In this document: positions 384-20,848 of the stretch, piece by piece | Layout: every line of letters starts with the position of its first letter | How positions within the stretch are numbered: the stretch's first letter is position 1 | Origin: a bacterium | GTDB taxonomy: Bacteria; Myxococcota; UBA727; JAUIJE01 | Length of the DNA stretch: 64,000 bases | Direction of reading: 5' to 3' | NCBI GenBank assembly: GCA_030431455.1 | Contig: JAUIJE010000018.1 | Location: 12,115 to 76,114, forward strand | Translations under genes and position numbers: made by a program | Notes under the pieces: generated by a model | Told to the model about the DNA's origin: nothing | Databases searched by the model: none | The model's input: the letters and a program-made list of their open reading frames with translations, nothing else

Positions 384-632
384 CGCAGCCTGCACCTCGT
401 CCTCGGCCCAGCCGCAGATCTCTACGCGGCCGAGGGCCTGCCCGAGGGCGAGAGCGTCGCGTGCCGTCACCAGCGCGCCGTCCACGTCGTAGGCGCCAAG
501 GGGCGACGCCCCGCCCGCACCGAGCGGTTGCCAGCCTGCGCGGCGTGCATGCCACCGCAGGGTGGCCCAGAGATCTGCATCGAGCTCAAGCGCAACGGTC
601 GGTGCCGCCGAACGTAGGGTGACTGTGGGCAT
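330..632 (-). CDS. hypothetical protein (100 aa, internal ATG of the 358-aa track ORF)
   Basis: The MPTVTLRS... segment has protein-like composition and G/C-rich third positions. It overlaps the 3' end of 18..383 by 54 nt, so one of the two may be wrong. Confidence 0.25.
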   Translation of the reverse strand: MPTVTLRSAAPTVALELDADLWATLRWHARRAGWQPLGAGGASPLGAYDVDGALVTARDALALGQALGRVEICGWAEDEVQAALRLRWLASEGEFVVSVR

Positions 633-712
633 TGAAAAGTATCCGGGCGAAGCGTGGGCGAGTTGCATCTTGCCTACATGTGCACACGTCGTGCCCGGGA
701 GCGAGGTGTGGG

Positions 713-1042
713 ATGTGCAACTGCAATGAGGCGCGCGAGCTGCGGCAGCGCGTGGAGGATGGTGAGTTCGAGCGCGGCGAGATGCAGGCGCGCCTTGGCG
801 CGCTCGAGGATGCCGTGTCGCAATGGCGGGACGTCGTTGCGCGAGCGGGACGAGCCGAGCGTTCAAAGCCAAAAAGAGATGAGACAGCGGCCCATACGGC
901 GCAGCCGGATGGGGGAGGCGGCGCCCCGCGTCGTGCGTTAGGCGCAGCAGCTTCAGCGCCGCAGGTAGCGCACAGGCGCGCGGGGGTGGGCGAAGCCGGC
1001 ACCCCGCGAGGGATGGCCAAGGGGCAAGATCGAAGCGGTTGA
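713..1042 (+). CDS. hypothetical small protein with coiled-coil-like N-terminus
   Basis: ATG at 713 (MCNCNEARELRQRVEDGEFERGEMQARLGALEDAV...). Codon bias is good only in the first half. Confidence 0.2.
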   Translation: MCNCNEARELRQRVEDGEFERGEMQARLGALEDAVSQWRDVVARAGRAERSKPKRDETAAHTAQPDGGGGAPRRALGAAASAPQVAHRRAGVGEAGTPRGMAKGQDRSG

Positions 1043-1392
1043 GGGCACACGATCCGGAACGGGAAGGCCGTGGTGTGTGAAGTAGGAATAGCCCGGTGAT
1101 CCCAATCTGAAAATGGGGGTCCGTTTGGGCGAAAGTTCTCTTTTGTCCTCTTTTCTCCAGATGAGTCGTTTTTGTTCCACACCTGACAACGCGGGCTTTG
1201 GACAAAGCGGCGTAAGCCCCCGGAATCAGTGCGGGGACATAGTTGCGTAACTTTTGGGCAGGGTTTCTCGCTGGGACCCCCTCCCCCTTGTCCCGCCCTC
1301 GAAGAGCACAAACCGCCGCCCTCAAGGGCGCGCACAATTTTGGTGCTGAACGCCGTTTCCGACGGTGGAATGCGGCCCGGCAAGGCCGCGTG

Positions 1393-1755
1393 ATGCGATG
1401 TGGCATGTGCTACATCCCGCCAAAGCCCGCGCCCCGAAGGCCCCGGCCTCCAATGCCACGGCTTCCCCCGAATCCGAGGATCAGCGAAAGCGGACGGGTC
1501 TCGTACCCCTGCGACCTTTGCCGCGCTGACGCCGTCACCGAGGCACACGCGCTTTGCCGCGACTGCACCTCGTTCCTCAGGCTGGCCGCGGTGAGCGGCG
1601 GTGCCTCTGTCGGGTTCCGGCCAGCGTGGGGCCAAGAACCTGTTGCAGACCCGGCGCCCGCGCCGCGCATCGACGGCGGCACCATCAGCTCGGCACCCGT
1701 CCCACCTCGCCGGCCAGTGCCCCCGCCCGACCCCCACATCACACTCACGCGGTGA
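1393..1755 (+). CDS. hypothetical Cys-rich/Pro-rich small protein
   Basis: ATG at 1393. Paired CxxC-like cysteines (CDLCRADAVTEAHALCRDC). Ends 37 nt before the portal gene. Confidence 0.25.
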   Translation: MRCGMCYIPPKPAPRRPRPPMPRLPPNPRISESGRVSYPCDLCRADAVTEAHALCRDCTSFLRLAAVSGGASVGFRPAWGQEPVADPAPAPRIDGGTISSAPVPPRRPVPPPDPHITLTR

Positions 1756-1791
1756 CCCCCGCCGCAGCTTGGCCCCGCGCGACCTTGGGGC

Positions 1792-3144
1792 ATGGGCCTG
1801 CTCTCCGACATCGGTGACAGCATCACCCGGGCCTTCGGCATCGGGGGCGTCCCCGCCGACCTCGCGGCGGTGCTCGGCTATGAGCTGCAGGTCATCACCG
1901 GCGGCCGCCCCCCGCGTCGTGGCACCGGCGAACTCATCGAGGCCTACCGCAAGATGCCCTGGCTGCACGCGACCGTGCGCCGGCGCGCGGAGGCCGTCGG
2001 GGGCGTCGAGTGGGAGCTGTACCGCCGCGTGAAGGCCAAGCCGCCCCGCGGCCTGCGCTCCGGCGAACACGCCACCCGCTCCAAAGCCATCGGGCTCGGC
2101 CTACAGGCGGGCACGCTCGAGCGCGTTCACGAGCACCCGCTGCTCGACCTGCTCGCGCGCCCGAACCCCGCGATGACCGGTCGCAGCTTTTGGGAGCTCA
2201 CGAACAAACACCAGGACCTCGTCGGCGAGTCGTTCTGGGCGATGGACTCCGACGACCGCGGCCGCCGTGTGCTCTGGGCGGTGCCCCCGTCGCAGGTGCT
2301 CAACACCCCGACGATGCGCGACCCCGTCTACCAAGTACGCACCGCCGAGGGCACGCTGCGCATCCCCGCCGGCGACATGATCTGGATTCGCCAGCACGAC
2401 CCGAACGACCCGTACCGTGGTCGGGGCACCGGCGTCGCCCAGGCCCTCACCGACGAGCTGCAGACGGACGAGTACTTCGCCGAGCTCGGCATGGCCTACG
2501 GCTATAACGGGTCGATGCCCGCCGCCCTCGTCGAGCTGCAGGGCGCCAAACAGGATCAGATCGACAAGTTCAAGGCGCTCTGGGACGCGAAGAATCGTGG
2601 GCCCCAGAAGGCCGGCCGCACCCACTTCACCAGCACCGCGTCGAAGGTGCACATGCTCGGCCGGAATATGGTGGAGAGCGACTACATCGCCGCCCGCCAG
2701 ATGTTCCGCGACTTCTGCCTGCAGGTGTTCGGGACGCCCCCCGAGATGCTCGGTGTCCTCGAGAACGCCAACCGGAGCACCATCGACGCGGCCGAGGTGC
2801 TGTTCGCCCGCTACTCCACGCTCCCCGCGCTCGAGCGCTACTGCTCTGAGCTCGAGTGCTGGGTGGTGCCCCACTTCGGGCGCGACCTTGTGCTCGGCTT
2901 CCCCAGCCCCGTCCCCGACGACGTCGAGGCTCAGCGCAAAATGATGGTCGCGCTCCCCGGCGCGTTCAAGGTCGACGAGATTCGCGCCCGCGCCGGCGAG
3001 GACCCGCTGCCTGATGGCCAGGGCCAGCAGCTCATGACCGCGCCCGGCGCACCCCGCATCCCCGTCGAGGAGACCCCACAGGGCGCCAAGCCTGGCCTCG
3101 TGCCGGTGTCCGATGACGACGACCCGAAGGAGATTGCCGCATGA
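1792..3144 (+). CDS. phage portal protein, HK97 family
   Basis: 450 aa. Position and sequence style fit HK97-type portals (PWLHATVRRRAEAVGGVEWELY, NPAMTGRSFWELTNKHQDLVGESFW, GTPPEMLGVLENANRSTIDAAEVLF). Confidence 0.85.
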   Translation: MGLLSDIGDSITRAFGIGGVPADLAAVLGYELQVITGGRPPRRGTGELIEAYRKMPWLHATVRRRAEAVGGVEWELYRRVKAKPPRGLRSGEHATRSKAIGLGLQAGTLERVHEHPLLDLLARPNPAMTGRSFWELTNKHQDLVGESFWAMDSDDRGRRVLWAVPPSQVLNTPTMRDPVYQVRTAEGTLRIPAGDMIWIRQHDPNDPYRGRGTGVAQALTDELQTDEYFAELGMAYGYNGSMPAALVELQGAKQDQIDKFKALWDAKNRGPQKAGRTHFTSTASKVHMLGRNMVESDYIAARQMFRDFCLQVFGTPPEMLGVLENANRSTIDAAEVLFARYSTLPALERYCSELECWVVPHFGRDLVLGFPSPVPDDVEAQRKMMVALPGAFKVDEIRARAGEDPLPDGQGQQLMTAPGAPRIPVEETPQGAKPGLVPVSDDDDPKEIAA

Positions 3145-3689
3145 GCCCCGAAGACAAACCGAAGTGGATCGGCCTCGCCGCCGTCCTCGTCGCCATCGCC
3201 GTCGTGCTCTCGCCGTTCAGTGCGTGCGCCGCGACCGCCGCCTGGCTCCGTGCGGACAGCGCCGCCGAGGCGCTGGCCATCGAGAACACCGCGCGCACCG
3301 AACAGGTCCGGCAGCTCGCCGCCATCGTCGAGAAGCAGACCGAGATCCTCGAGAAGCAGACTCAGGCGCTGGAGTCCATGGCCGACGGGATGTGCCCGCT
3401 GCTCTCGAATCCGGTGCGCATGATCTCGTGGCGGCAAACGGTCAGCGCCACCACGAGCACCCTCATCAGCCCCGACGCCGGCGTGACGAAGTTGCTCACG
3501 TGGGCGTGCAAGGACACGGCAACCGGCGGGGCCACGGCGTACGTTGGCAGCGCCGGCGTGACCAACAGCGACGGCGCCTCCGAGGATGCGGACAGCTATT
3601 TCGGCGGCGACGCATCGCAGGCCTACATCTACTTCACCTCGGGCCCGGTGACCCTGGAGTGCAAGGGCGGCGTTCGGGATGGGGCATAG
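3141..3689 (+). CDS. membrane-anchored coiled-coil protein (182 aa)
   Basis: ATGA start/stop overlap with portal. N-terminal TM helix (WIGLAAVLVAIAVVLSPF), then a heptad-like region (EQVRQLAAIVEKQTEILEKQTQALE). Confidence 0.6.
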   Translation: MSPEDKPKWIGLAAVLVAIAVVLSPFSACAATAAWLRADSAAEALAIENTARTEQVRQLAAIVEKQTEILEKQTQALESMADGMCPLLSNPVRMISWRQTVSATTSTLISPDAGVTKLLTWACKDTATGGATAYVGSAGVTNSDGASEDADSYFGGDASQAYIYFTSGPVTLECKGGVRDGA

Positions 3690-5862
3690 CATGCGGCTGC
3701 TCAGCAACATTGCTGGCGCGCTGTTCGCTGCCGGCGCTGCTTGCTTGACCGTGGGGCCCGCGGCGGCCGGCTCGCTTGAACCGGCGGTGAGCTCGCTCGA
3801 GCACGGGGCGCTCATGGGCGGGGTGCTTCAGCCTCGGAGCGGCGGCAGTGCTGCCCCGTTCTTCACCTACTACGACCGCAACTTCCGCGCCCAGGCAGCA
3901 AATGTCGGCACGTTGCCGACCTGTACCGCGGCAACCAGCTGCGTGATGCAGTGCTACGCAGAGACAGGCGACGCCTGGACCTGCGTGGATGAGACCGGCG
4001 GCGCCATGACCGTCACCGACGGCACCGGACAGGCGACCTACCTGTCGCCCTTTGGCTACGCGCTCGACGACACCACCGATGCCAGCGCCCCAACCCTCGA
4101 GCCACCACCCAGCGCCGTCAACAGCGCGCTCGCGCCGGGCAGCGCGTGGACCGTCGTGCTCACCGGCAACTCGGGCGAGGCCGGCGCGACGTCGTGGATG
4201 GGTTGGACGTTCGACGGCAGCACCGGGGACTACATCTGGATGCGCAACGTTGGAGCCGGCTTTCAATGCCGAGCCGGAGGCGTCATCCCGTCGGTCTCGC
4301 CCTCCGGCGCGTACCGCGGCCTCAAGGGTGGATGGGGTATGCACAGTTGCCGGTGGGATGGGGTCAATACTCTCACGGTGCGCGCCCACGGGACGCAAAC
4401 GTCGGCGACCGGGAGCTACACCGCCCCCGGGGGGACGCTCGTGCAGTACTTCGGATCGTCCTGGCTGACCCCCTACCCGGCCCGCGGAGGCATCCAGAGC
4501 GTGACCATTTTCGCCGAGGAGAAGACCGACACCGAGATGGCGCGGTACGAAACCGAGTGGTGGGGTGGGGTCTACGAAGCCGACGACGACCCGCTCGACA
4601 ACCCGCGGGCCGGTGAACAGTACGTCATCGCCAACGGGCGCGCCGAGCACTATCACCACAGCGTCGGCATCATGGACGCCACCAACGGCCTAAGCCTCGA
4701 CGGCGGCGGCAACGACGCCAATCCGGCGGGTTCCGGGTTCGCGGCAGACGCGCTCGACGTCACGACGTGGACCGATATCGGGTCACCCGTCGAGACAGCC
4801 AATGCCGCCGCGGGCCTGTTCGCCGACTGGAAAAAGGGAAGCGGCGGGACGGAAATGGCGCTTGTCGAGGACGACGACGGCGCGGTCGGCGAGGGGCACA
4901 GCGGAACACTGAACTGTGGCGACGCGGGCACCGAGACGGGTTGGTTTACGATGAGCTGCTACGCCGCGGCCGGCTCCATCGACCAAATGCGCGTGGGCAT
5001 CACCACCAACGGGACAATCACGTCGGGAGCGGCGGAGTGTTCGCACACCGGGCTCACCACCTACACGGGGCCCGGAGACGTCGAGCGCTACTCGTGCACG
5101 ATGGAAATCGGCGGCTCGCCAACGTCGACCAAAGGCTACTACCTCGTGGGCGATGACGACACAGATACTGGTACGCTCTACATCAATCAATGCCAATGCG
5201 AGCCCCGAGGGCACGCCAGTAACCCCAAGCCGATCCAAGTCAGCACCCGCGCGATTGCCGAAGACGCTTGGACCATCCACGCCGACGAAACGGCCACCTG
5301 GCCCGACGGTGTGACCGACGGCGGCGACGTCGAGGTGGTGTTCAAACTGCCCTACGCCTACCCGACCTATGCACAGTTCACCGAGTTGTTTCTTGACGTG
5401 CACAACAACGGGGCCGGGGCGGCGTCTTCTGACCATTCAATGTTTCTCACCCTGGCGTACACCACCAACGTTGACCCGCCGTCGCTCAAGCTCGCCACCC
5501 ACGACCCGGTTGTGGCCGGCGCTGATTGCCACGACGCGGGTGCCTCCGCCACCGACACGGAATGGACCATGGCCGGCGCCCTGTCGGCTGACACTTGGTA
5601 TGTGGCCCGCGGCGTCTACACGCCGGCCGGGACGTCGGGTGGCTACCCGGTAGTCACGCATCAGCTGTACTTCGACACCTGTAGCGACCCAGACACTTGC
5701 CACGCAACCACATTGCGGGCCACGGGGTCGGACAAGTGCGCCCCCAACGGGTCTTTTGACACGGCCTATTTTGGTCGTCGAATCGGGACCAACAACCGCC
5801 GCACCACCGGGCACATTGCGCGCTTCGGGGTGAGCGGCACCACGGCGGGGTACACCCCGTGA
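3679..5862 (+). CDS. exported 727-aa protein with LamG/jelly-roll-like features
   Basis: Signal-peptide-like N-terminus (LLSNIAGALFAAGAACLTVGPAAAG). The C-terminal end ...TGHIARFGVSG resembles LamG-type lectin folds. An alternative ATG lies at 3691. Confidence 0.65.
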   Translation: MGHSMRLLSNIAGALFAAGAACLTVGPAAAGSLEPAVSSLEHGALMGGVLQPRSGGSAAPFFTYYDRNFRAQAANVGTLPTCTAATSCVMQCYAETGDAWTCVDETGGAMTVTDGTGQATYLSPFGYALDDTTDASAPTLEPPPSAVNSALAPGSAWTVVLTGNSGEAGATSWMGWTFDGSTGDYIWMRNVGAGFQCRAGGVIPSVSPSGAYRGLKGGWGMHSCRWDGVNTLTVRAHGTQTSATGSYTAPGGTLVQYFGSSWLTPYPARGGIQSVTIFAEEKTDTEMARYETEWWGGVYEADDDPLDNPRAGEQYVIANGRAEHYHHSVGIMDATNGLSLDGGGNDANPAGSGFAADALDVTTWTDIGSPVETANAAAGLFADWKKGSGGTEMALVEDDDGAVGEGHSGTLNCGDAGTETGWFTMSCYAAAGSIDQMRVGITTNGTITSGAAECSHTGLTTYTGPGDVERYSCTMEIGGSPTSTKGYYLVGDDDTDTGTLYINQCQCEPRGHASNPKPIQVSTRAIAEDAWTIHADETATWPDGVTDGGDVEVVFKLPYAYPTYAQFTELFLDVHNNGAGAASSDHSMFLTLAYTTNVDPPSLKLATHDPVVAGADCHDAGASATDTEWTMAGALSADTWYVARGVYTPAGTSGGYPVVTHQLYFDTCSDPDTCHATTLRATGSDKCAPNGSFDTAYFGRRIGTNNRRTTGHIARFGVSGTTAGYTP

Positions 5863-6287
5863 GGCTGCTCGCGTTCGCCCTGCTACTCCTCGCCGGCTGC
5901 ACCGACCCCGTGCCTGGGTGGGATACCCGCATCGCCGGCGGCCTGCCAGGCGCCGACTCTCCCGCCGAGGTCGGCGCGATGCTCGACTGCATCTATGCCC
6001 CCTTCGCCTCGCCCCAGGTGCGCCATCTCCTCGACGAACAGGTCGTGACGTTCACGCCCTCGGTGTGGGACGGGTTCCGCGGCAAGAACATGGCCGGCCT
6101 GTGGAACGAGCTGCGCGACATCCGCGTGGCCACCAGCGGGGCGCAGTCCATCGGAGACACCGCGCTCGCCCACGAACTCACCCGCGTTGTGCACTACGCC
6201 ATCACCGGCCGCTCGCTCTCGTCGACCGACCACGCGCGCACGTACGTGGAGATCATCGATCACTGCAACCGGGAGGCGCGGCAATGA
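5859..6287 (+). CDS. phage-encoded lipoprotein (142 aa)
   Basis: GTGA overlap with the upstream gene. Lipobox LLLLAGC near the N-terminus. Confidence 0.6.
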   Translation: MRLLAFALLLLAGCTDPVPGWDTRIAGGLPGADSPAEVGAMLDCIYAPFASPQVRHLLDEQVVTFTPSVWDGFRGKNMAGLWNELRDIRVATSGAQSIGDTALAHELTRVVHYAITGRSLSSTDHARTYVEIIDHCNREARQ

Positions 6288-6598
6288 GCGAACCGAAGAA
6301 AGCGATCGTGCCCGACTGGTTGGCCAAGGTGATTCTCCCAACCATCCTCGGTGCCATGTCCACGGGCGTCGCCGGCTACTTCACGTTCCAGGCGGTGATC
6401 ACCGAACAAGTCGGGGCGCTGAAGGAGGACATCGTCGAGGTCCGCAGCGAGGTCCGCGCCAACACCCGCGCCATCGTCGACAACGCCAAGGACATCGCTC
6501 GCAGCGAAGAACGGCTCAACAGCAACTTGACCCGGGTGCTCGCTGACCTCGACTACATCCGCAAACGCGTTGACCGCATCGGCGGGGGGCGGCGATGA
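6284..6598 (+). CDS. single-pass membrane protein with coiled-coil ectodomain (104 aa, i-spanin-like topology)
   Basis: ATGA overlap at 6284. TM helix VILPTILGAMSTGVAGYFTF, then heptad-like VGALKEDIVEVRSEVRANTRAIVDNAKDIARSEERL. Confidence 0.55.
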   Translation: MSEPKKAIVPDWLAKVILPTILGAMSTGVAGYFTFQAVITEQVGALKEDIVEVRSEVRANTRAIVDNAKDIARSEERLNSNLTRVLADLDYIRKRVDRIGGGRR

Positions 6599-6822
6599 AC
6601 GTCACGAACGGCGTTTGGTACGTCGCCGGTCTCACCGCAGCCGGCATCACGTGGTGGGCCGCGGTTGCCTACTGTGAAAAGCGCGCGGCCCAGGCGGCGA
6701 CGGACGGCGTCGAGAACTGGGAAGACATCTACTGGGCGCGCATGTTGCGACGCCTTTCACGCAGCCGCTTCGCCGACTTGAAGCGGCGGATGGAGAACGA
6801 CAATGGCGACCCTGAAGATTGA
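6595..6822 (+). CDS. small single-TM protein (75 aa, holin-like architecture)
   Basis: ATGA overlap. TM helix VWYVAGLTAAGITWWAAVAY followed by a charged C-terminus. Confidence 0.5.
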   Translation: MNVTNGVWYVAGLTAAGITWWAAVAYCEKRAAQAATDGVENWEDIYWARMLRRLSRSRFADLKRRMENDNGDPED

Positions 6823-7081
6823 AGTCCCCCCCAACACCAAAGCCGCGCTCGTCGTCTTCGCTGGCGACGGCGACGGCGACGGCGTCCCCGGCATCACGTC
6901 GAAGGTGCTCGTCGATCTGCCGTTCGACGGAGACGACGACCTCGAAGAGGTGCTTTCGATCGAGGAGTTTGAGCCGGTGCAGCCGGCCACTCTCGGCGCC
7001 CTGGCGGCCGAAATCACCAAGCGCGCCGCGCCGCTGGTCGATGCGGCCGCGAAGCTCTGGGCCTCGCTTCCCCTCGGCTGA
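6803..7081 (+). CDS. small acidic protein (92 aa)
   Basis: ATG overlaps the upstream gene by 20 nt. Acidic composition (GDGDGDGVPG..., DGDDDLEEVLSIEEFE). Lies immediately upstream of the protease gene. Confidence 0.45.
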   Translation: MATLKIEVPPNTKAALVVFAGDGDGDGVPGITSKVLVDLPFDGDDDLEEVLSIEEFEPVQPATLGALAAEITKRAAPLVDAAAKLWASLPLG

Positions 7082-7114
7082 CGCCCCAGCTTGAGCGGCC
7101 CCTAGCGTCCGGGC

Positions 7115-7921
7115 ATGTACTTGACGCGACGGGCCGCCCAGGCCGCCATTCAGCAGCGCGAGGCCGACGGGGACATCCTCGACATCAGCCTCGTCCGGGT
7201 CACCGAGGCCCCCAGCCTGCGGCGCGACCCCTCCGACGACGAGCTCGCCAAAGCCCGTGAGGCGCTCGGCGACAAGGCCCTCGAGGGCGCCCGCGTCGTC
7301 CCCTTCGTCATCAGCACCGAGAAGCGCGCGAGCGATGGACACACCATCGCGGCCGAAGGTTGGGACCTCGAGCAGTACCGGAAGAACCCGGTGGTGCTCT
7401 GGGGCCATGAGACCTGGGCGCCGCGCATCGGTGACTCGGCCGTGTGGGTGGACACCGGCGACCCGGGCAAGCGCGTGCTGCGGGCCGCCGCCGTGTTCTT
7501 CCCCCGCGAGGTGTCGGAGCTCTCGCACACCCTCGGCGAAATCTCCGCTCTGCGCGGGCACGCCGCGTCCGTCGGCTTCCGCATCCTCGCGGCCAACCCC
7601 GCCGAGGAGGCGGTGCGCGACAAGCTGCCGTGGGCCCTCGACATCGTCTCCGCGCGCTTGCTCGAGTGGTCGCTCGTCAATGTCCCTGCGGACCCCGACG
7701 CCATCGCCGAGGCTCGCGAGCGTGGCATCGATACCCAGCCGCTGGCCCGGGCCCTCGACCGCCTGTGCGACCTCCTGAGCGCGCAGGACCGTCCCCCCGA
7801 CCTCGAGGCCGCCCGCGCGGCCGCCGCGCCCCAACAGGGCACCACGTTCGACCTCGGCGCATTCCGGGCGGGCCTCTCGGCTCAGCTTGGCGAGGTCGCA
7901 CAAAAGCTCACGGGCCGCTGA
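7115..7921 (+). CDS. HK97-family prohead protease
   Basis: GWDLEQYRKNPVVLWGHE and WSLVNVPADP are typical of peptidase U35/S78 prohead proteases. Lies directly upstream of the capsid gene. Confidence 0.85.
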   Translation: MYLTRRAAQAAIQQREADGDILDISLVRVTEAPSLRRDPSDDELAKAREALGDKALEGARVVPFVISTEKRASDGHTIAAEGWDLEQYRKNPVVLWGHETWAPRIGDSAVWVDTGDPGKRVLRAAAVFFPREVSELSHTLGEISALRGHAASVGFRILAANPAEEAVRDKLPWALDIVSARLLEWSLVNVPADPDAIAEARERGIDTQPLARALDRLCDLLSAQDRPPDLEAARAAAAPQQGTTFDLGAFRAGLSAQLGEVAQKLTGR

Positions 7922-7948
7922 CGGCCGGAACCCCTTGGAGGCCAGCAG

Positions 7949-9493
7949 ATGGATCCCAAAGAACTCGAAGAAATCCTCAAAGCCCTCCGGGGCGAACTCG
8001 GTGAATTCGGCAAGACCCTCCTCGAGGACCGCGAGAAGATGGTCGCGCGTCTTGACGAGATCGACGGGCGAATCAACGACCTGCCGTCTTCCGGTTCGGA
8101 TGGCCAACTCAAACACCGCTGGGGCAACCCGGTCGCCGCCATTGCCGCCGGCAACCCCCTGGCCGCCAACCCCGAGGGCACCGCCGAGGAAGCGGTCGAG
8201 GAGCTGCGCGAGCGCGTGTCGAAGGAGCGCTCCGGCCACTTCGTGATGATGCCCAACGGCACCTTCGTCCCGGTGCTGAAGCGGTTCAGCGCCATCCGTG
8301 GCTCGCAGGTTCCCGCCCAGCAGCGCAACGCGCTCATGGCCGTCCGTCAGATGCGCGCCCTCGCTCTCGCCGTCTCGCAGGGCCGCGAACCCAGCGCCGA
8401 GAGCGCCCTCGCCGCCGCCCGCGGATGGGGTGACCCCGAGCTCCTCGGCGCGCTCGAGCACGCCCGCGACATGGTTCGCGGTCTGCGCTCGGGAGACCGG
8501 GAGCAGCGCGAAGCCTCCGAGCGCGCGCTTGGCACCGCCACCCTCGGTTCGGGCGCCAGCTTCGTGCCCGGCGAGTACTTCGGCGAGGTCATCGACTACC
8601 TCCACGACATGTCCGTCGTCCGGAGCTCCGGGCCCAGCATCCTGCCGATGTCCCGAGGGTCGCTGACCATCCCGTTCGTCGACAGCGCGGCGCAGGCCAC
8701 CTACGTCGGTGAGAACGCCGGCAGCAACGCCACCACGCTCGGCGACGCCGTGTTGAAGCTCGTGCGCAAGAAGCTGCAAATCATCTTCCCGCTGAGCAAC
8801 GAACTGCTCGCCGAAGCCAGCTATGCGGTCGATGCCTTCGTGCTCCGGCACATGGGCTACGTCGCTGCGGCGCGCGAGGACCTCGCGTTCATCCGCGGCG
8901 ACAAGACCGAGCACACGCCCGGCGGAATGAAGTACTGGGCCGAGCAGTCCAGCGCGGGCGGCGATGCTCACAACTTCAACCGCACCCTCGACACCGGCGC
9001 GCCCACCGTCCAGACCATCACCAACGACCTCATCAAGGCGCTGCGCATCCTCGAGGACTCGAAGGTCCCACTGATGATGGTGACCTGGTTCATGAGCCCG
9101 CGGGACTTCTGGGGCCTGGTGGCCAAGCGCGGGACCTCCACCGACACCGAGGTGTTCGCCGAGATGCGCGGCGGGACCCTCTACGGCCAACCGGTCAAGC
9201 GCTCGACCCAAATCCCGAAGACCCTCGCCGGCGACGCGTCGGGCACCGGGACCGGGAACAAGTCCGAGGTCTACTGTGCGGCGATGGGCAACAATGTCAT
9301 TGCCGAGAGCGACGGCGCCGAAATCACCGCGCAGAACGGTGTGGCGTACAAGAACGCGAGCGGCGTCGTCACCGCAGGCTTCACCGAAGACCAGACCGTG
9401 ATGAAGATGAACCGCTACCACGACTTCGGCGACCTCTACCGGGGCGCGTCGAACGTGCTCATCGAGTCCGTCGACTGGGGCGCCACCGCGTAA
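7949..9493 (+). CDS. major capsid protein, HK97 family
   Basis: 514 aa. N-terminal coiled-coil delta-like domain (MDPKELEEILKALRGELGEFGKTLLEDREKMVARLDEIDGRINDL). Position after the protease. Confidence 0.85.
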   Translation: MDPKELEEILKALRGELGEFGKTLLEDREKMVARLDEIDGRINDLPSSGSDGQLKHRWGNPVAAIAAGNPLAANPEGTAEEAVEELRERVSKERSGHFVMMPNGTFVPVLKRFSAIRGSQVPAQQRNALMAVRQMRALALAVSQGREPSAESALAAARGWGDPELLGALEHARDMVRGLRSGDREQREASERALGTATLGSGASFVPGEYFGEVIDYLHDMSVVRSSGPSILPMSRGSLTIPFVDSAAQATYVGENAGSNATTLGDAVLKLVRKKLQIIFPLSNELLAEASYAVDAFVLRHMGYVAAAREDLAFIRGDKTEHTPGGMKYWAEQSSAGGDAHNFNRTLDTGAPTVQTITNDLIKALRILEDSKVPLMMVTWFMSPRDFWGLVAKRGTSTDTEVFAEMRGGTLYGQPVKRSTQIPKTLAGDASGTGTGNKSEVYCAAMGNNVIAESDGAEITAQNGVAYKNASGVVTAGFTEDQTVMKMNRYHDFGDLYRGASNVLIESVDWGATA

Positions 9494-9568
9494 CCAATCC
9501 CCCGGCCCGCCCGAAAGAGCGGGCCAGCTTTCCCCCTTTGAGAGGCGCCGGGCGCCGAGGAGATCACC

Positions 9569-10039
9569 ATGGAACGAAACATCGCCGGCCTGCTCTCGCT
9601 GAAGTTCGGCGCGACCGCCTCGCAGGTGGCCGCCGGCGCGGGCGACAACACCGAGGTCGACGGCACCGGCATCGACCGCCAGGGCGCCATGTCCGCCGCC
9701 ATCTGCGTCGTGGCCCGCTCCGTCCTGCAGGCGACGGAGACCAACACCATCAAGATGACCATCCAGGAGTCCTCGGACAACAGCAACTGGACGGACATCG
9801 CCGCAGCGCTGCAGCCGGAGGGTGCGGCCAACTCGACCATCCTCACCCAGCTGGGCGGGTCGGGCGGCACCACCGAGGAGGACGTGTACAAGCTCGCCTT
9901 GGACCTCTCCTCGCTCAAGCGCTACATCCGCGTGCAAATCCTCCCCGACCTGTCCGCGTCCGGCACCGACACCGCCGTCGTCGCGGCCGCGGTCGTCCTC
10001 GGTGGCCTCGACGTCGCCCCCGACACCGTCTCGCAGTAA
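9569..10039 (+). CDS. hypothetical head-module protein (156 aa; decoration-type position)
   Basis: Good RBS (GGAGGAG) 6 nt upstream of the ATG. Followed by a strong intrinsic terminator. Confidence 0.6.
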   Translation: MERNIAGLLSLKFGATASQVAAGAGDNTEVDGTGIDRQGAMSAAICVVARSVLQATETNTIKMTIQESSDNSNWTDIAAALQPEGAANSTILTQLGGSGGTTEEDVYKLALDLSSLKRYIRVQILPDLSASGTDTAVVAAAVVLGGLDVAPDTVSQ

Positions 10040-10065
10040 GCGCTGCCCACACATTGCTTACGCGG

Positions 10066-10104
10066 GGGCGCGGGCTGGTTTCGACATAGCCCGCGCCCTT
10101 TTTT
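10066..10104 (+). terminator. intrinsic terminator/attenuator inside the late operon
   Basis: An 11-bp perfect stem, GGGCGCGGGCT (10066-10076) / AGCCCGCGCCC (10088-10098), followed by TTTTTT. Confidence 0.6.
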
Positions 10105-10126
10105 CTGACCAACAGGAGGGCCCGTC

Positions 10127-10429
10127 ATGGCCAAAAAGGAAGCAACCAAGAAGGTCCCCGCGCTGCGCGCCCTGCGGCAGTTCGAGTGCTACAACGCCGG
10201 CGACGTGCTCTCGCTGCCGGAGAACGAGGCCAAGCGGGCGCGCGACCGCGGCCTCGTCGAAGACGTCCTCGTCGAGGTGCCCGGCGGCGCGGTGCACTCG
10301 GTGCCCAAACCCGAGCCGAAGCCGGAAGCAGAGGGCGGTGGCGACGGTGGCGACGGCGACCCGCCCAAGACCCCGACGGGCTCGGCCAACCGCGAGGACA
10401 CCAGCACGGCGAGCACCGCACGGCGGTAG
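10127..10429 (+). CDS. hypothetical phage protein (100 aa)
   Basis: RBS AGGAGG upstream. Lys-rich N-terminus and Gly/Asp/Pro-rich C-terminus. Confidence 0.5.
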   Translation: MAKKEATKKVPALRALRQFECYNAGDVLSLPENEAKRARDRGLVEDVLVEVPGGAVHSVPKPEPKPEAEGGGDGGDGDPPKTPTGSANREDTSTASTARR

Positions 10430-10432
10430 TCC

Positions 10433-11101
10433 ATGACCCTCTCTGATCGCGCCCTGGTGACGCTGGCGGATGTCCTCGACGAGCTGAACAAAAGCTCCGA
10501 CAGCGGCACCGTCGACGCGCGCCTCGAGCGCTACATCGAGGAGGCAAGTTCGCTCTGCGCCCGGTATTGCGATCGGGCGTTTGAGCGAGACCCCGCCATC
10601 AGCGAAGCCGTCGCCCCCCTCGGCGGCACCAAGCTGTATCTCAAACGCGGGCCCATCAACGCGGTGACCTCCGTGACCGTCGACGGCGCCGTGCTCGACT
10701 CCGGCGACTACGACCGGCGCCTCAACCGCTTCGGCGAGGGCGAATGCCTCTACCGCGCTTCGGGCTGGCCATGGCCCGCGGGCGTCGAGCCGAGCCCAGG
10801 CTATCCGCAGATTCCCGACACCGAGGACGAGACCATCACCGTCGTCTATGACGGCGGCTACATCACGGGCGGGCAGAGCACGAACGGGCACGCCACCTAC
10901 AACGGTCAGACCCCGACGGTCCCCGCCGACCTCGCCGGCTCGGTGCTGCAGATGGTGTGCACCCGGTGGCATGGCCGCGGGAAGGACCGCCGCATCACGC
11001 AGGAGACCCACGAGGGCGCGACGTACACCTACGGCGGCGTCCCGCTCCCCGTCGAGGTCACCGCGGTCTGGGACTTCTACCGGCACTGGGGCCAGGCGTG
11101 A
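10433..11101 (+). CDS. head-tail connector (gp6-like) protein
   Basis: The N-terminus TLADVLDELNKSSDSGTVDARLERYIEEASSLCARYCDRAF matches the style of gp6-like head-tail connector proteins. Position fits. Confidence 0.6.
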   Translation: MTLSDRALVTLADVLDELNKSSDSGTVDARLERYIEEASSLCARYCDRAFERDPAISEAVAPLGGTKLYLKRGPINAVTSVTVDGAVLDSGDYDRRLNRFGEGECLYRASGWPWPAGVEPSPGYPQIPDTEDETITVVYDGGYITGGQSTNGHATYNGQTPTVPADLAGSVLQMVCTRWHGRGKDRRITQETHEGATYTYGGVPLPVEVTAVWDFYRHWGQA

Positions 11102-11517
11102 GCCTGCACCTCGGCGTCGACCTGCGCGGCACCGACGTCCGCGCCCGCCGCGACATCGAAGAGGCTGGCGACGCTGTGCGCGAGGCGTGGAAGGTCGCCC
11201 ACTTCCGGCTGGCCGAGGACATCATCGATGCCGCGCTGCGCGACGTCCCCGTGCGCACCGGCCGGCTCAAGCGCTCCCGCTTCGTCGAGCGGCGCCATCC
11301 CGTGCCCTTCGGCTTCAGCGCCGAGTACGCGTACACCGTGCACGAGCTCCACCGCGGCCGCGGCAAGAAGTACCTGCAGCATGCGATCAGCACCGCCCAC
11401 GGCACTGCGCAACGGACCCTGGCAGCTCACTTCCGACGCGCGCTTGCCACCGGTGAGACGCTTGCCAGCATTTCCGGCCGTCATCCGTCACGGCCCGTCG
11501 AGGGTGGTGCCCGATGA
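11098..11517 (+). CDS. HK97 gp10-family head-tail joining protein
   Basis: GTGA-coupled GTG start. The motif DVPVRTGRLKRS resembles the PVDTGxLRxS signature of the gp10 family. Confidence 0.65.
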   Translation: MSLHLGVDLRGTDVRARRDIEEAGDAVREAWKVAHFRLAEDIIDAALRDVPVRTGRLKRSRFVERRHPVPFGFSAEYAYTVHELHRGRGKKYLQHAISTAHGTAQRTLAAHFRRALATGETLASISGRHPSRPVEGGAR

Positions 11518-11963
11518 CCGTCTCCACCCCCGCCTTCGCCGGCGACCTCATCGCCCGCATCGCCACGCTCAACCCGGGCCCGGGGGACTGGTTGCTCTCG
11601 GGCATCGGGCGGAACCTCTGGGCGCACCCCGAGCGGCCGGCCGGCGGCGACATCGGGCACGAGGCGCTGTTCGTGGACCCGTCGGGGGGCGCGCGGTTCA
11701 ACCTTCACGGTGACGGCCAGTGGCGCGAGCACGACGCCCAGCTGCTCTACCGCTACCCCCTGGCCGACTACGGCACCGAGGAGGAGGCGGCCACCGCGGC
11801 GTGGGCGAGGATGTCGCGCCTGTTCGACGTCCTGCATCTCTCCGGCGACTTCGTCGGCGCCGTGTCGTCTGCGGCCTACCAAGACATCCGAGCCATCGAC
11901 GCCGCGCGGCTGCTCCCGAACCACTACTGCGTTCTCAACGTCACCGCCTGGTACGACTCATGA
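11514..11963 (+). CDS. tail completion/terminator-position protein (149 aa)
   Basis: ATGA coupling. Assignment is by position between gp10-like and tail tube genes only. Confidence 0.5.
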   Translation: MTVSTPAFAGDLIARIATLNPGPGDWLLSGIGRNLWAHPERPAGGDIGHEALFVDPSGGARFNLHGDGQWREHDAQLLYRYPLADYGTEEEAATAAWARMSRLFDVLHLSGDFVGAVSSAAYQDIRAIDAARLLPNHYCVLNVTAWYDS

Positions 11964-12253
11964 AAACCCCCAACAACACCGCGGCCCTGGCCGTGCTCGT
12001 GCCCCTCGTCGACGCCATCGCCAACGGCCGCGCCGACGTGGTCTCGCTGGCCACTGCGGACGGCGAGGACGACAAGGCCGAGGTCGGCATCGTGTGGCGG
12101 CAGTGCGTGCCCCCGGCGCCGAGCCCCTACGTGCCCCCCGTCCATGCCGATGACCCGCGGTTCTGCCGCGACTGCGGTGGAGAGGCCCAGCACCTCGCCG
12201 AGGGCTACTTCTGCACCGCGTGCGGCACCAACTGGCCTGATGCCCCAGCTTGA
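11960..12253 (+). CDS. hypothetical phage protein with C-terminal zinc-ribbon-like CxxC pairs (97 aa)
   Basis: ATGA-coupled ATG at 11960. FCRDCGG...FCTACG. Confidence 0.45.
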   Translation: MKTPNNTAALAVLVPLVDAIANGRADVVSLATADGEDDKAEVGIVWRQCVPPAPSPYVPPVHADDPRFCRDCGGEAQHLAEGYFCTACGTNWPDAPA

Positions 12254-12290
12254 GCCCGGGCGACGTTGAGGGTTGTAGGAGGTCGCGAAA

Positions 12291-12704
12291 ATGGCAACTG
12301 GACTCGGACGCCTTTCAGAGGTCTACATCGGCACCAGCAGCCCGGCGACGACCAAGCTGACGCAGATCACCGACCCGTCGGAAAGCCTCGACCACAAGCG
12401 CGCTGACACCACGACCAACGACAGCGGTGGGGACGAGGAACACGTCGTCACCCACAAGAGCGGCTCGATGAGCCTGAAGATCCTCTGGGACCCCGCGTCC
12501 CCGACGTGCCAGTCCCTGATCACCCATCACCAAAGCGGCGACCCCATCTACATCCGGCATCGCCCCCACGGGACGAGCAGCGGCTACATCCAGCACGACT
12601 TCCAGGCCACCGTCGTTCTCAAAGACAGCGCCCCCGTCGGCGGCGTGTCGACCATGGACGTGACCTTCACGCGCACCGGCGCGATGACCCCCTCCAACCA
12701 ATAG
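12291..12704 (+). CDS. major tail (tube) protein
   Basis: 137 aa. Position directly upstream of the chaperone pair and tape measure. Sequence style of TP901-1/phi13-type tail tube proteins. Confidence 0.65.
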   Translation: MATGLGRLSEVYIGTSSPATTKLTQITDPSESLDHKRADTTTNDSGGDEEHVVTHKSGSMSLKILWDPASPTCQSLITHHQSGDPIYIRHRPHGTSSGYIQHDFQATVVLKDSAPVGGVSTMDVTFTRTGAMTPSNQ

Positions 12705-16458: not shown

Positions 16459-19221
16459 ATGGGCCGCGCCCTCCACACCCCGCACCAGGCCCTCACCCTC
16501 GCAGCCGGCGACAACGACACCATCGCGCTGTTCCTCTGCGATGAGAGCACGCTTGGCGATGGAATGCTCGAGGAGGTCAGCGGCAACAATGCCACCGACG
16601 CCTTTGGCGGTACCGAGGTCGCCGGTGGGTTGTTCGCGGTCCCGCAGGGGAGCACTGGTGCACGGGTCTTCACCGGCACGGAATACCAAACGCTCAACAG
16701 TGACAACCCCACCCGCGCCGCCCTCGTCGCCGACGACCTCACCTTTGAGGCGTGGGTGCGGCCGGACGCCCTCGGGGGCACGCAAGTCGTGCTCGAGCAC
16801 GGCGCCGCGGGGGAGACGGAAGCAGCCAACATCCTGATTCAGGTGGCCTTTTCGGGCTCAGAGCTTCGTTGGCTTTGGGAGACGGGCGCGGGGACGAACG
16901 TCTCTGGCACGACCAGTGGCGCCGCGTTCACCGACACCTTTGTCTACCACGTGGCCGTCGTGCGGCGCACCGCCGCGAGCGGAACCGCCGACAAGGTCGA
17001 CGTCGACGTGTTCGTCAACGGCGGGCTCTACCAGCAGTGGACCGACCAGGACGCGCCGAGCGGCGGCACGCTGACCAACTGGACCATCGCGGCGAATGTC
17101 TCCGGCGGAGACCTGTACGAGGGAGCGGTCGACGACATCCGGCTTTCGTCGTTCGCTGCCGAGCCCGAGGCCATCCGCGAAACCTACGCCGCGGGCATCC
17201 GCGACTTCGACGAGGCCGCCGTCCTCGACTGCGACACCTATGCGAGCTTCGACCGGGTGCGCGTGCTCACCGACAACGGATGGGTTGACCTCTCCAATCT
17301 GCGCGGCGTCGACTTCGTGCATAGCATCGAAGACGGCAGCGACACCGACGACACCGACGCCTATTGCACGGTGACGCTGTTCCGGCGCCGCGCGGATGTG
17401 AGCGTCGCCCCAATGATGGACGGTTCGGTGGTGAACGCCGTGGACGCGGGCGGCACGCTCCTCACGCTGCGCTCGCGCGTGCTCGTCGAGTCCGCGGTGG
17501 TGCCCGAGGGCTGGGCGTTCGGCCAGGTCGGCCCGCATTGGCGCGTGGTGTTCGACGGCGTGATCGGAGGCTACGAGCCGGCATCGAACTACATCGACGT
17601 GCGGGTGGTGACCGCCAAAACTGAGTTGCACGAGACGTTCATCGAGCCCGACCGCGGGTCCTCGCCGCCCATTGACCGCGAGTACGGTTCCTCCGGTGGG
17701 ACCGCAGTCGAGGGCGAACTGCAGGACATCATCGACGACAATGAGCCTGCAGCAGGCTACAACCGCCCGCAGCTTCTCTACACGCCCTCGTCGCCCGGGT
17801 GGAACGTCCTCGAGTTCGTGACCCCGCCGACCATGACCGTGGGGCAGGAACTCGACGAGGTCGCCCGGTCGATTGGCTGGCTCATCAAAACGATCTGGGA
17901 CGACCGGCGGAAGCTTCACCGGCTCACGTTCTACGAGCCCGACCGCGCAACGGGTTGGACCTCCGGCGACCTCGAGCTCACCCCTGACCGTGTGCTCGCG
18001 ACGAACCGGTTTGAAACTGACTTCGCCTACACCCGCAACGCGGTCGAGGTCGAATACGGGGACAGCGCCTCGACCGACAACACCGGAACCATCGAGCGCG
18101 CCACCGTGCTCGTCGAGGATGCTGCATCCATTGCGAAGTGGGGGCGGCGCTACTGCCGCATCGGCATCGCCACCACCGACCGGCTGAACAACGTCACCCA
18201 AGCCACCGAGCTCGCCAACAACGTCCTGTCCGACCTCAAGGACCCGCTCATCGAGGCCGAGGTCGACATCCGCTACAACCCCACCGTCGAGCTGCACGAC
18301 ATGGCCCGCTACTACGCGGACAACCTTCGGCTCGACTCGGACATCGATCTCGCGGTGGTGGGCTACCGGCACCGGCGCTCCGCGGACGAGCGGCGCACGA
18401 CCCTGACGCTGCGCGGCGCCAAGCCCGCGGGCCACGTGCGCCGCTGGTTCGACGACGGCATCGTCGCCGCCGGTCACATCGACGGGCTGCAGACCCGGCC
18501 CCCCGACCAGCCAACCAACCTCACGGTCGCGGGCATCGCCACCGGCCTGGCCGTGGCCTGGGACCACCCCGCAAACCGCGGGTTCCGTGACGTGCAGCGC
18601 ACCGAGGTCCACGTCTCGACGTCGAACGGCTTCACCCCTTCGTCGTCGACGCTGGTGGCCGTGGCCGACACGAACTCCATCGTCATCCAGGACCTCGACC
18701 CGGAGCAGGGGCCCTACTACGTAAAGGTGCTCCTGCGCGATTCGGCGAACAACGTGTCGGCGCCGAGCGCCCAGGCCGGTGCAGGGGTTTACTTCACCGC
18801 GGCCATCCCCCGCTTCCGAGCCCGCGTGACCACCGCGTCGTCGACGACCTACACCACGACGCCGGCGCACCTGGACCCCACCGCGGGCTCTGGCGCTGCA
18901 ACCGAGGACTACGACGTCGGCGCCAACCTGGCGGCGGACTGGACGTTCACCGCGCCCGTCGACGGGCAATACCGGTTTAGCGTGTACCTGCCGTTCGATG
19001 GGGCCGCCACCGGAACGAGCGCGCACCTCTACGCGGACAAGGGCTCGGGGTATGCCCTCGAGATCGCCGGCCCATCGTTCGCCGGCACGAATTGCATGGT
19101 CACCGGCACCATCGACCTGCGAGCCGGCGACACCGTGCGCGTCTACGCTGCAGCGTCGGCGGGTTCCCGCGTGCAACTCGGCGCACGCTTTGAGGGTGAA
19201 CTCATCGGAGACGCGACATGA
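16459..19221 (+). CDS. tail fibre / host-specificity protein (LamG-like N-domain, FN3, C1q-like C-terminal jelly roll)
   Basis: LTFEAWVRPD...YEGAVDDIRLS is LamG-like. PDQPTNLTVAGIATGLAVAWDHP...YYVKVLLRDSANNVS is FN3-like. The C-terminal DGQYRFSVYL...LRAGDTVRVYA is a C1q/TNF-like signature. Confidence 0.7.
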   Translation: MGRALHTPHQALTLAAGDNDTIALFLCDESTLGDGMLEEVSGNNATDAFGGTEVAGGLFAVPQGSTGARVFTGTEYQTLNSDNPTRAALVADDLTFEAWVRPDALGGTQVVLEHGAAGETEAANILIQVAFSGSELRWLWETGAGTNVSGTTSGAAFTDTFVYHVAVVRRTAASGTADKVDVDVFVNGGLYQQWTDQDAPSGGTLTNWTIAANVSGGDLYEGAVDDIRLSSFAAEPEAIRETYAAGIRDFDEAAVLDCDTYASFDRVRVLTDNGWVDLSNLRGVDFVHSIEDGSDTDDTDAYCTVTLFRRRADVSVAPMMDGSVVNAVDAGGTLLTLRSRVLVESAVVPEGWAFGQVGPHWRVVFDGVIGGYEPASNYIDVRVVTAKTELHETFIEPDRGSSPPIDREYGSSGGTAVEGELQDIIDDNEPAAGYNRPQLLYTPSSPGWNVLEFVTPPTMTVGQELDEVARSIGWLIKTIWDDRRKLHRLTFYEPDRATGWTSGDLELTPDRVLATNRFETDFAYTRNAVEVEYGDSASTDNTGTIERATVLVEDAASIAKWGRRYCRIGIATTDRLNNVTQATELANNVLSDLKDPLIEAEVDIRYNPTVELHDMARYYADNLRLDSDIDLAVVGYRHRRSADERRTTLTLRGAKPAGHVRRWFDDGIVAAGHIDGLQTRPPDQPTNLTVAGIATGLAVAWDHPANRGFRDVQRTEVHVSTSNGFTPSSSTLVAVADTNSIVIQDLDPEQGPYYVKVLLRDSANNVSAPSAQAGAGVYFTAAIPRFRARVTTASSTTYTTTPAHLDPTAGSGAATEDYDVGANLAADWTFTAPVDGQYRFSVYLPFDGAATGTSAHLYADKGSGYALEIAGPSFAGTNCMVTGTIDLRAGDTVRVYAAASAGSRVQLGARFEGELIGDAT

Positions 19222-19733
19222 CCATGGTTTGCAGTGACATCGAGGCGCTCATCGAGCCTTTCCGCGCACAGGCCCGCGCCCTCCTCGAGGAGCTCCACCG
19301 CAAGCGCATCCCGGTCAAACCGTTCGAGACGCACCGCGCGCTGCAGCGCTCTGCGTTCCTGTGGACGTTCGGCCGCGAGGGGAGGCGGCGGCACCTGCTC
19401 AAACGGACCAACGCAAAGCCGGGCGAGAGCGCCCACAACTGGGGCCTCGCACTCGACTGCGTGCTCGACGTGAAGGTGGTGCCCGTGCGACTCCGGGCGT
19501 GGCGCGGGCGCCGGGTCCCGGACGCGTGGGACAATGAGACCCCCGCGGCCAAAGAGGTGTGGGAGGCGTACGGGGGCGTGGTCCAAGCCCGCGGACTGGT
19601 GTGGGGCGGGACGTTCAACATCGGCGGCCGCCCCGACTTGCCGCACTGCGAGATGCCCAACTGGCGCAAGCACCGGCCGGAGAACTGGCGCCTCGAGGTT
19701 CAACGCGTGTTGAAGGCCGCGGGCGCAGCTTGA
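19218..19733 (+). CDS. endolysin, peptidase M15 (VanY/L-Ala-D-Glu peptidase-like)
   Basis: SAHNWGLALD (SxHxxGxAxD zinc-ligand motif) and a distal LPHCEM histidine. ATGA coupling to the fibre gene. Confidence 0.75.
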   Translation: MTMVCSDIEALIEPFRAQARALLEELHRKRIPVKPFETHRALQRSAFLWTFGREGRRRHLLKRTNAKPGESAHNWGLALDCVLDVKVVPVRLRAWRGRRVPDAWDNETPAAKEVWEAYGGVVQARGLVWGGTFNIGGRPDLPHCEMPNWRKHRPENWRLEVQRVLKAAGAA

Positions 19734-20623: not shown

Positions 20624-20848
20624 ATGAGCAAAGACTTTCGGTCTCGGTTTCGGCGCGGGCGTCCCTTCTCGGAGGGAATCGCGTCAATCCTCGACGTGCT
20701 CGGCGCCGACGACCGCGACTTTGAAGACCTGCGCAAACTGAAGGACGACAGCGACGAAGAGCGGCTGGCGGCCGATTGGCGCCGAGTCGGCGCCGATGGA
20801 CACCGTGCGTTTGGCCGCTTCGCAAGCGAGCAGCCCGCGCATCGATGA
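20624..20848 (+). CDS. hypothetical small charged protein (74 aa)
   Basis: First gene after a GC-poorer spacer (20474-20623). ATGA-coupled to the next gene. Confidence 0.4.
   Translation: MSKDFRSRFRRGRPFSEGIASILDVLGADDRDFEDLRKLKDDSDEERLAADWRRVGADGHRAFGRFASEQPAHR

Follow-up and report, generated by a model that had tools for sequence, protein, structure and literature searches.

The window analysed here, a stretch of 64,000 nucleotides (nt) from a bacterium of the phylum Myxococcota (G000:C26:12115-76114), carries a prophage in which six coupled open reading frames (ORFs), at 3141-7081, separate the portal gene from the prohead protease gene. This block is an insertion relative to related prophages, and its largest product, ORF2, is an exported protein with three lectin-type domains whose family is mostly phage-borne, is mobile between phage types and recurs beside lysis and packaging genes. 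Tentatively, we favour a reading of the block as a late-expressed envelope/lysis-accessory cassette, in which ORF3 and ORF4 would be spanin-like and ORF5 holin-like. The window derives from a metagenome-assembled genome of 7.7 Mb (97% complete), and its sequence is present in two metagenome runs, both of DNA.

All six ORFs lie on the plus strand, as do the flanking genes, and together they fill the 3,970 nt between the portal stop and the protease start. Their G+C content at third codon positions (GC3) is 0.80-0.91 in the frames given below, compared with 0.91 for portal and protease, and this bias identifies them as real genes and rules out chance ORFs of a 68% GC sequence. The left flank is the portal gene (1792..3144; Pfam Phage_portal 6.7e-41, phrog_2662 1.9e-62) and the right flank the prohead protease (7115..7921; phrog_80 head maturation protease 5.9e-07, phrog_617 7.6e-13), which matches Peptidase_S78 weakly and is 43% identical to the gene directly 3' of the portal in a related prophage, G001. 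Start and stop codons overlap as ATGA at 3141 (portal stop and ORF1 start), 6284 and 6595 and as GTGA at 5859, while the ORF2 ATG at 3679 precedes the ORF1 stop by 11 nt and the ORF6 ATG at 6803 precedes the ORF5 stop by 20 nt. Shine-Dalgarno-like motifs were found for ORF1 (AAGGAG, 9 nt upstream), ORF4 (GGGAGG) and ORF6 (GGAG). A first-pass annotation of this DNA had described six coupled genes with these overlaps between portal and protease, and both the gene set and the junctions are borne out in the sequence; an alternative ORF2 ATG at 3691 (MRLLSN...) is also possible, leaving a 1-nt gap to ORF1, and is the start used by a database copy (P0010).

Comparison with related prophages, which the first-pass annotation had proposed as a check on variability, locates the insertion. 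The G001 prophage, found in a genome of the same taxonomic order, is syntenic and has a portal that is 46% identical; beyond the portal, its protease, capsid and head-tail genes match, as do its tail tube, tail fibre and M15 endolysin and the gene that comes next to the endolysin on the 3' side. By tblastn, 11 other structural or lysis genes match in G001 and none of the six block genes does; there the protease starts 2 nt after the portal stop. Portal and protease are likewise adjacent in a prophage fragment of G034. Because both relatives have adjacent portal and protease genes and lack the block, the block is an insertion. Within 1000-10000, a scan with a sigma-70-like consensus, which may not suit this host, found no promoter-like site; no terminator-like site lies on the coding strand inside the block, the two terminator-like hairpins of this region being outside it or antisense. 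With no internal promoter or terminator found, the block looks co-transcribed with the head genes and seems to lack the shape of a classical moron having its own promoter and terminator. Its coupling to portal and protease and the absence of such signals lead us to expect strong, late expression and no expression in the lysogen. Our search of the literature on insertions between portal and protease, or on myxophage lysis, found nothing relevant.

ORF2 (3679..5862) encodes 727 amino acids (aa), or 723 aa from 3691, with 17 Cys and a GC3 of 0.83. It begins with a Sec signal peptide followed by about 30 disordered residues. An AlphaFold2 (AF2) model built on a 39-sequence alignment reached a predicted local distance difference test score (pLDDT) of 84 and a predicted template modelling score (pTM) of 0.85; residues 1-56 are disordered and are followed by three beta-sandwich domains, predicted as LamG/ConA-like jelly rolls, so that the label "LamG-like" given to this protein at first pass was upheld by structure prediction. 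Against the PDB, Foldseek retrieved domains of laminin (LG), neurexin (LNS) and sialidases (lectin modules), as well as the lectin-like jelly roll present in clostridial receptor-binding domains (probability 0.8-1.0), with whole-chain template modelling (TM-) scores of at most 0.26, and these are therefore single-domain fold matches. Such matches would point to a binding module and not to an enzyme. Against BFVD, the matches were multi-LamG phage proteins, with E-values down to 1.6e-16, and the Atlas neighbours of ORF2 are viral Laminin_G_3 clusters. ORF2 itself has no match to Pfam Laminin_G_3, which is matched by 7 of 39 homologues (best 1.4e-05), and a PDB profile search with the family returned sialidase lectin domains only (E 0.11).

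A full HMMER scan of 1.84 billion representatives yielded 76 relatives of ORF2, mostly full length (620-750 aa). A signal-like N-terminus is present in 60 of the 67 full-length members, and several of the signal-less exceptions look like miscalled starts; in P0011, an upstream ATG gives MSWRVRASLILSLFAILSSSAQA/G (the slash marks the cleavage site) and overlaps the preceding gene by ATGA. Cleavage sites of the AxA type are conserved (for example ...ADA/Q), some members carry lipoboxes, and each member has 10-28 Cys, with several positions invariant. No member was found by tblastn in 50,697 deposited phage genomes, and searches for related loci with the portal or the family alignment returned almost nothing. 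What is new here is the exported triple-LamG family together with its partner gene and its membrane coiled-coil companions, none of them named in Pfam, PHROGs or NCBIfam or present in deposited phage genomes.

Where the surroundings of family members could be read, they connect the family to several parts of the phage genome. Four members follow a portal gene: the one in the window, that of L039, where the portal is P22-type, and those of L011 and L037, where the genes upstream match the portal of L039 over its C-terminal half (7e-7 and 1e-8). In L039 the order is portal, small exported protein, LamG member, an 86-aa transmembrane (TM)-coiled-coil protein and TM proteins of 91 and 94 aa. L013 starts with a 207-aa exported protein, the LamG member, a 30-aa TM protein and a 136-aa TM-coiled-coil protein. 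After these come genes for a protein of 96 aa and a TM protein of 32 aa, three further small genes and then an M15 endolysin, which shares 57% identity with the endolysin of the G001 prophage and 38% with that of the window. The L032 locus, a prophage of G075, is arranged as small exported protein, LamG member, 213-aa Cys-rich protein, 201-aa lipoprotein, HNH, and the small (TerS) and large (TerL) terminase genes, TerL matching PDB 6z6d (9e-33). L035 has the LamG member, a 94-aa TM-coiled-coil protein and then TerS (Terminase_2 1e-34), and in L034 the member comes after TerL. Downstream of the L010 member come a coiled-coil-TM protein (128 aa), a TM protein (75 aa), an acidic protein (62 aa) and lastly a 194-aa protein whose resemblance to TIGR02594/tail-lysozyme is weak. 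The members of L002 and L018 come after tail or receptor-binding genes. A TM-anchored Peptidase_M23 (8e-19) is encoded 0.7 kb downstream of the member in L033 (G141), where the stretch 1060-12652 holds, in this order, a 2602-aa protein, a small exported protein, the LamG member and the M23 gene, beside riboflavin biosynthesis genes. The L016 member sits in a cellular-looking cluster of secreted proteins (L016:1679-11379) that adjoins Mur ligase, Band_7 and response-regulator genes, and is surrounded there by five signal-peptide proteins with an N-terminal A-T-T-I-G-x-D-I-x-T-x-G motif.

Two kinds of companion gene recur in these contexts. Directly 5' of the LamG gene, in almost every context and often with an ATGA overlap, lies a small gene encoding 110-210 aa with a hydrophobic N-terminus; these upstream partners belong to at least two unrelated sequence families (A5, A6). 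Directly 3', a small TM or TM-coiled-coil gene is present in at least 7 of the 13 contexts with downstream sequence, and the TM-coiled-coil proteins of L002, L013, L039 and L035 align with one another (A3). We also noted a family of 91-98 aa (A4), with an N-terminal hydrophobic helix and a T-x-T-P-x-D-D-x-I motif ("TPxDD"), whose members (L002:12375-12671, L013:3830-4120 and L039:6644-6919) always come after the TM-coiled-coil gene 3' of the LamG gene; it has no name in Pfam, PHROG or NCBIfam and may be of holin or antiholin type.

The five smaller products of the block, like ORF2, gave no usable family match in Pfam, PHROGs or NCBIfam. ORF1 (3141..3689; 182 aa, 4 Cys, isoelectric point (pI) 4.5, GC3 0.91) has a 28-residue uncharged segment at residues 9-36 (KD19 2.4), which would be either a signal peptide with an ACA/A site or a signal anchor, then a helical stretch with about 57 residues free of Pro and Gly, and a beta-rich C-terminal domain. 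In a word-index search of 5.8 billion clusters ORF1 retrieved only itself, the Atlas held nothing for it, and hhalign comparisons with the two upstream-partner alignments were negative. ORF3 (5859..6287) is a 142-aa lipoprotein, MRLLAFALLLLAG/C, with a DTALAHELTRVVH motif, and is the candidate outer-membrane partner; its lipobox is LLAG/C and its mature part 128 aa. A scan in any frame on both strands found no other lipobox ORF in window 1-24800, in the 12 kb upstream or in 20 kb of the G001 prophage. ORF3, too, found only itself in the word-index search; its AF2 model (pLDDT 47) is too poor for use, and the Atlas returned unnamed clusters plus faint BSP and PhageMetallopep hints. Among 401 genomes of the phylum, ORF1 and ORF3 had chance-level matches only, with one broken match in G335 (E 1.7e-5). 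ORF3 aligns weakly with the 201-aa lipoprotein of the G075 prophage (BLAST E 0.064; 31% in MAFFT) around DTALxHEL, where that protein reads HELAH and ORF3 reads HELTRVVH; we treat this resemblance as a lead only. The G075 protein itself (L032:8484-9089, minus strand), in which HELAH conforms to HExxH, is a possible small lipoprotein metallopeptidase.

ORF4 (6284..6598; 104 aa, GC3 0.86) has a short basic N-terminus, one probable TM segment at residues 16-35 (20 uncharged residues after KK, KD19 1.47) and then a helical stretch with about 55 residues free of Pro and Gly. From hydropathy it is predicted to be N-in/C-out, an i-spanin-like topology. Its weak family matches are to a PHROG of Rz-like spanins (phrog_739, 0.017) and the Pfam LPP leucine zipper (0.019); profile comparison with the TM-coiled-coil alignment was negative, and no embedded o-spanin lipobox ORF was found inside ORF4 or its analogues. 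ORF5 (6595..6822; 75 aa, GC3 0.80) has one probable TM segment at residues 6-27 (22 uncharged residues, KD19 1.34) and a highly charged C-terminal tail rich in Arg, Lys, Asp and Glu. It is probably holin-like in size and shape only, and an hhalign comparison with the TPxDD family was negative. The ORF4 and ORF5 segments are moderately hydrophobic, and their insertion into a membrane is probable, as judged by hydropathy. ORF6 (6803..7081; 92 aa, GC3 0.85) is an acidic protein of pI 4.1 that contains a DGDGDGDG run and lacks any hydrophobic segment. The 62-aa acidic protein of L010, with its DSDGD run, occupies the same relative place, and BLAST found no similarity between the two. The likeness of ORF1, ORF3, ORF4, ORF5 and ORF6 to the products of other cassettes is thus one of position and topology and not of detectable homology. 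The first-pass descriptions of the six products were mostly right. Export signals are clear in ORF1-ORF3, and ORF6 is soluble as well as acidic.

The remainder of the prophage bears on what such a gene set could do. Its M15 (VanY-type) endolysin gene (19218..19733, plus strand; Pfam VanY 1.6e-08, Peptidase_M15_4 1.8e-07) lies about 12.4 kb from the block, and the product has no signal and, by hydropathy, no TM segment. It had been noted at first pass that no TM protein adjoins this endolysin, and this holds: in the two genes 3' of it the longest uncharged stretch is at most 12 residues. The host is a diderm, its genome containing seven Omp85-family matches in a search that, as a control, matched diderm genomes only, and lysis must therefore handle an outer membrane. 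ORF3-ORF5 are the only spanin-like or holin-like candidates found in the prophage, and only in the block were small membrane proteins and a lipoprotein found within the late operon. This gene content, the recurrence of ORF2 cassettes beside endolysin and terminase genes and the coupling to late genes together suggest that the block probably holds the membrane-acting lysis functions of the phage.

A model consistent with these observations is that the block was acquired horizontally and would be transcribed together with the late head genes and coupled to them in translation, its products being destined for the cell envelope and not for the virion. Its role would be the final, envelope-directed step of the lytic cycle. 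The core would be ORF2, Sec-exported, Cys-rich and built of three lectin-type jelly rolls, preceded by the small exported ORF1. ORF5 would make the inner membrane permeable to the M15 endolysin, which has no signal. Bridging and disruption of the outer membrane would fall to ORF3, an outer-membrane-type lipoprotein, together with ORF4, which would sit in the inner membrane and extend a helical rod into the periplasm. The target of ORF1 and ORF2 might be a glycan of the envelope, either periplasmic or at the outer membrane, and binding to it could help to dismantle the outer layers or keep progeny off debris.

The closest known parallels are the two-component spanins, such as lambda Rz/Rz1 and T4 PseT.3/PseT.2. 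In the described architectures the gene for the o-spanin lies inside that for the i-spanin, overlaps it or comes after it, and the typical combined size of the pair is about 250 aa (PMC6139136). Phages of Gram-negative hosts without a recognisable spanin amount to 91 of 677 genomes, about one in seven (PMC6139136). As in these systems, a lipobox lipoprotein, ORF3, is directly coupled to a protein with a probable N-terminal TM segment and a predicted helical part free of Pro and Gly, ORF4; the two add up to 246 aa, the host is a diderm, and no second lipoprotein gene occurs in the scanned parts of the prophage. Unlike the embedded, overlapped and separated spanins, in all of which the i-spanin comes first, the block has the lipoprotein gene first; some 12 kb separate the ORF3/ORF4 pair from the endolysin, the 128 aa of mature ORF3 are predicted to be helical and are not proline-rich, ORF4 matches Rz-like PHROGs at chance level only and ORF3 not at all, and the closest related prophage, G001, has no such pair. 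ORF5 differs from holin families in not lying beside the endolysin and in having no Pfam, PHROG or NCBIfam holin match. With canonical holin-endolysin-spanin cassettes the block shares small membrane proteins chained by start/stop overlaps in a late operon, and in other phages the ORF2-family cassettes precede an M15 endolysin (L013) or terminase genes (L032 and L035, the classical lambdoid lysis position). The block itself, by contrast, is placed between portal and protease, apart from the endolysin, and its two large exported products, ORF1 and the triple-LamG ORF2, have no counterpart in known cassettes. The suggestion made at first pass of a displaced holin/spanin cassette thus gains from the contexts of the ORF2 family and from the coupling of the ORF3 lipobox gene to ORF4 and loses on spanin or holin family membership and on gene order.

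Several observations weigh against an envelope/lysis-accessory cassette. No holin or spanin family was matched at a meaningful E-value in Pfam, PHROG or NCBIfam; the order of lipoprotein gene first and TM gene second is the reverse of that described for two-component spanins; and the TM calls for ORF4 and ORF5 come from hydropathy. ORF1, ORF3, ORF4, ORF5 and ORF6 are orphans whose profile comparisons with other cassettes were negative. The G001 relative looks like a complete phage without the block, from which it follows that the lineage does not need the block for lysis. Among the ORF2-family contexts, the LamG pair stands alone between portal and scaffold in L011 and L037, with no membrane genes, and the members of L016 and L033 are in cellular-looking surroundings; the endolysin identities considered for the 187-aa protein of L039 and the 194-aa protein of L010 proved weak or unsupported. 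Finally, we found no precedent for a lysis role of an exported lectin-like protein. A broader proposal, which we regard as doubtful, is that the small exported protein and the exported triple-LamG protein, in company with membrane-anchored coiled-coil proteins, form an unrecognised phage-release component in high-GC diderm hosts. It would be a lectin-like module of the periplasm or outer membrane that either stands in for spanins, or helps them, when the outer envelope is breached, or shields progeny from debris that bears receptors. As a cassette it would move from one phage type to another, unrelated one and between different sites of insertion.

A rather unlikely alternative, and the one that survives best, is that the block is a surface-modifying or superinfection-exclusion moron, in which ORF2, with ORF1 and ORF3, would bind, mask or alter a receptor glycan and so protect the lysogen from other phages or the progeny from debris. 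Receptor-blocking envelope proteins encoded inside phage late regions include T5 Llp, phi80 and N15 Cor, and lambda Lom and Bor. Like these, the block encodes exported or lipid-anchored products among structural genes and varies between related phages, being absent at the same junction from G001 and G034 as a moron would be. The GC3 of ORF2 and ORF5 falls below that of the flanking head genes, family members in L002 and L018 directly follow genes for tail or receptor-binding proteins and others occur in the non-phage-looking L016 and L033, and the phage's own tail fibre (920 aa, 16459-19221) also has a Laminin_G_3 domain (Pfam, residues 87-239, E 1e-13). ORF2 shares no sequence similarity with this fibre, however, and whereas Llp, Cor, Lom and Bor are single small genes, often with their own promoters, the block consists of six coupled genes including one for a 727-aa lectin-like protein. 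An envelope-modifying moron had also been proposed at first pass, and the absence from relatives speaks for it; the coupling of the block to the portal gene, its running into the protease gene and the lack of a promoter- or terminator-like signal in it speak against it, with the reservation about the sigma-70 scan given above. A moron would also leave unexplained the recurrent TM-coiled-coil and small TM genes and the proximity to endolysin and terminase genes in other phages.

We consider it unlikely that the block is not one unit at all, ORF1-ORF2 being a mobile two-gene module with some extracytoplasmic function that settles at permissive junctions, such as 3' of the portal, and ORF3-ORF6 being unrelated neighbours, some lysis-related and some head-related. 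This possibility is consistent with the pair of small protein and LamG member found alone after portal genes in L011 and L037, with the several unrelated sequence families to which the small downstream proteins belong, and with the G001 phage, which has a coiled-coil-TM protein in its structural module without any LamG gene. That protein, of 75 aa with a coiled coil and a C-terminal TM segment, is encoded between the connector and major tail genes (L009:10784-11011, minus strand), and its presence indicates that small membrane-anchored coiled-coil proteins occur within structural modules of this phage group. Two modules are harder to reconcile with the chaining of all six genes by overlaps and their joint absence from relatives, or with the TM or TM-coiled-coil gene that so often lies directly 3' of the LamG gene.

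It is very improbable that ORF1 and ORF2 belong to the virion, as a fibre, adhesin, decoration or ejection protein, with hydrophobic N-termini that are not export signals. The viral proteins structurally closest to ORF2 carry the annotations structural protein, tail fiber or putative adhesin, its Atlas neighbours are the viral Laminin_G_3 clusters, and the genes lie within structural modules. Tandem jelly rolls are indeed shared with phage multi-LamG proteins in BFVD, including the LamG protein of Synechococcus phage S-SKS1 and the putative adhesin of Pseudomonas phage PaBG, with two-domain superpositions giving TM-scores of about 0.6 on the target at 9-14% sequence identity. Unlike those proteins, the ORF2 family has conserved Sec signals or lipoboxes, many conserved cysteines and no N-terminal virion-attachment domain. 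Tailed-phage virions are assembled in the cytoplasm, which is at odds with classical signal peptides and AxA-type sites conserved across the family and with cysteines at invariant positions, as is typical of proteins oxidised outside the cytoplasm. Internal ejection or pilot proteins, an option raised at first pass, are disfavoured by these Sec signals and conserved cysteines, and ordinary head-morphogenesis, Mu-F-like or scaffold proteins, named there as the case that would overturn the idea, have no homology to the block in Pfam or PHROG, nor do ejection-protein families, and are set aside also by the export signals of ORF1-ORF3.

The rest of the prophage is laid out as follows. Its left end is upstream of the window, with the small terminase at L004:8635-9123 and the large terminase at L004:9126-10496; an HK97-type capsid gene (7949-9493; Phage_capsid 1.5e-19) lies downstream of the protease, and the right end is marked by an integrase (23579-24754) adjoining tRNA-Asp. 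The large terminase is 3.4 kb upstream of the portal (window 384-1791 plus L004:10496-13905), and the gap between them holds four small ORFs, a 1.4-kb stretch without a clear coding frame and a terminator-like hairpin at 1127-1148, with no Rfam match; G001 has a similar gap of about 1.3 kb that is unrelated in sequence. Downstream of the endolysin region, 20776-21324 encodes a further membrane protein of the prophage, 182 aa long, which combines a DUF2335 domain (4e-12) with a single strong hydrophobic segment.

To our knowledge, hardly any lysis genes are known for phages that infect high-GC diderm bacteria of the soil. If the ORF2 family acts in envelope disruption or in the protection of progeny, it would represent a new class of protein in the lysis and release of phages; if it serves instead in exclusion or at the surface, such genes would here be hard-wired into a late head operon. 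The family turns up near portal, tail, terminase or endolysin genes in different phages, accompanied by small membrane proteins, and it cautions that phage LamG proteins should not automatically be annotated as tail fibres. Either way, the block offers a concrete and testable set of genes.

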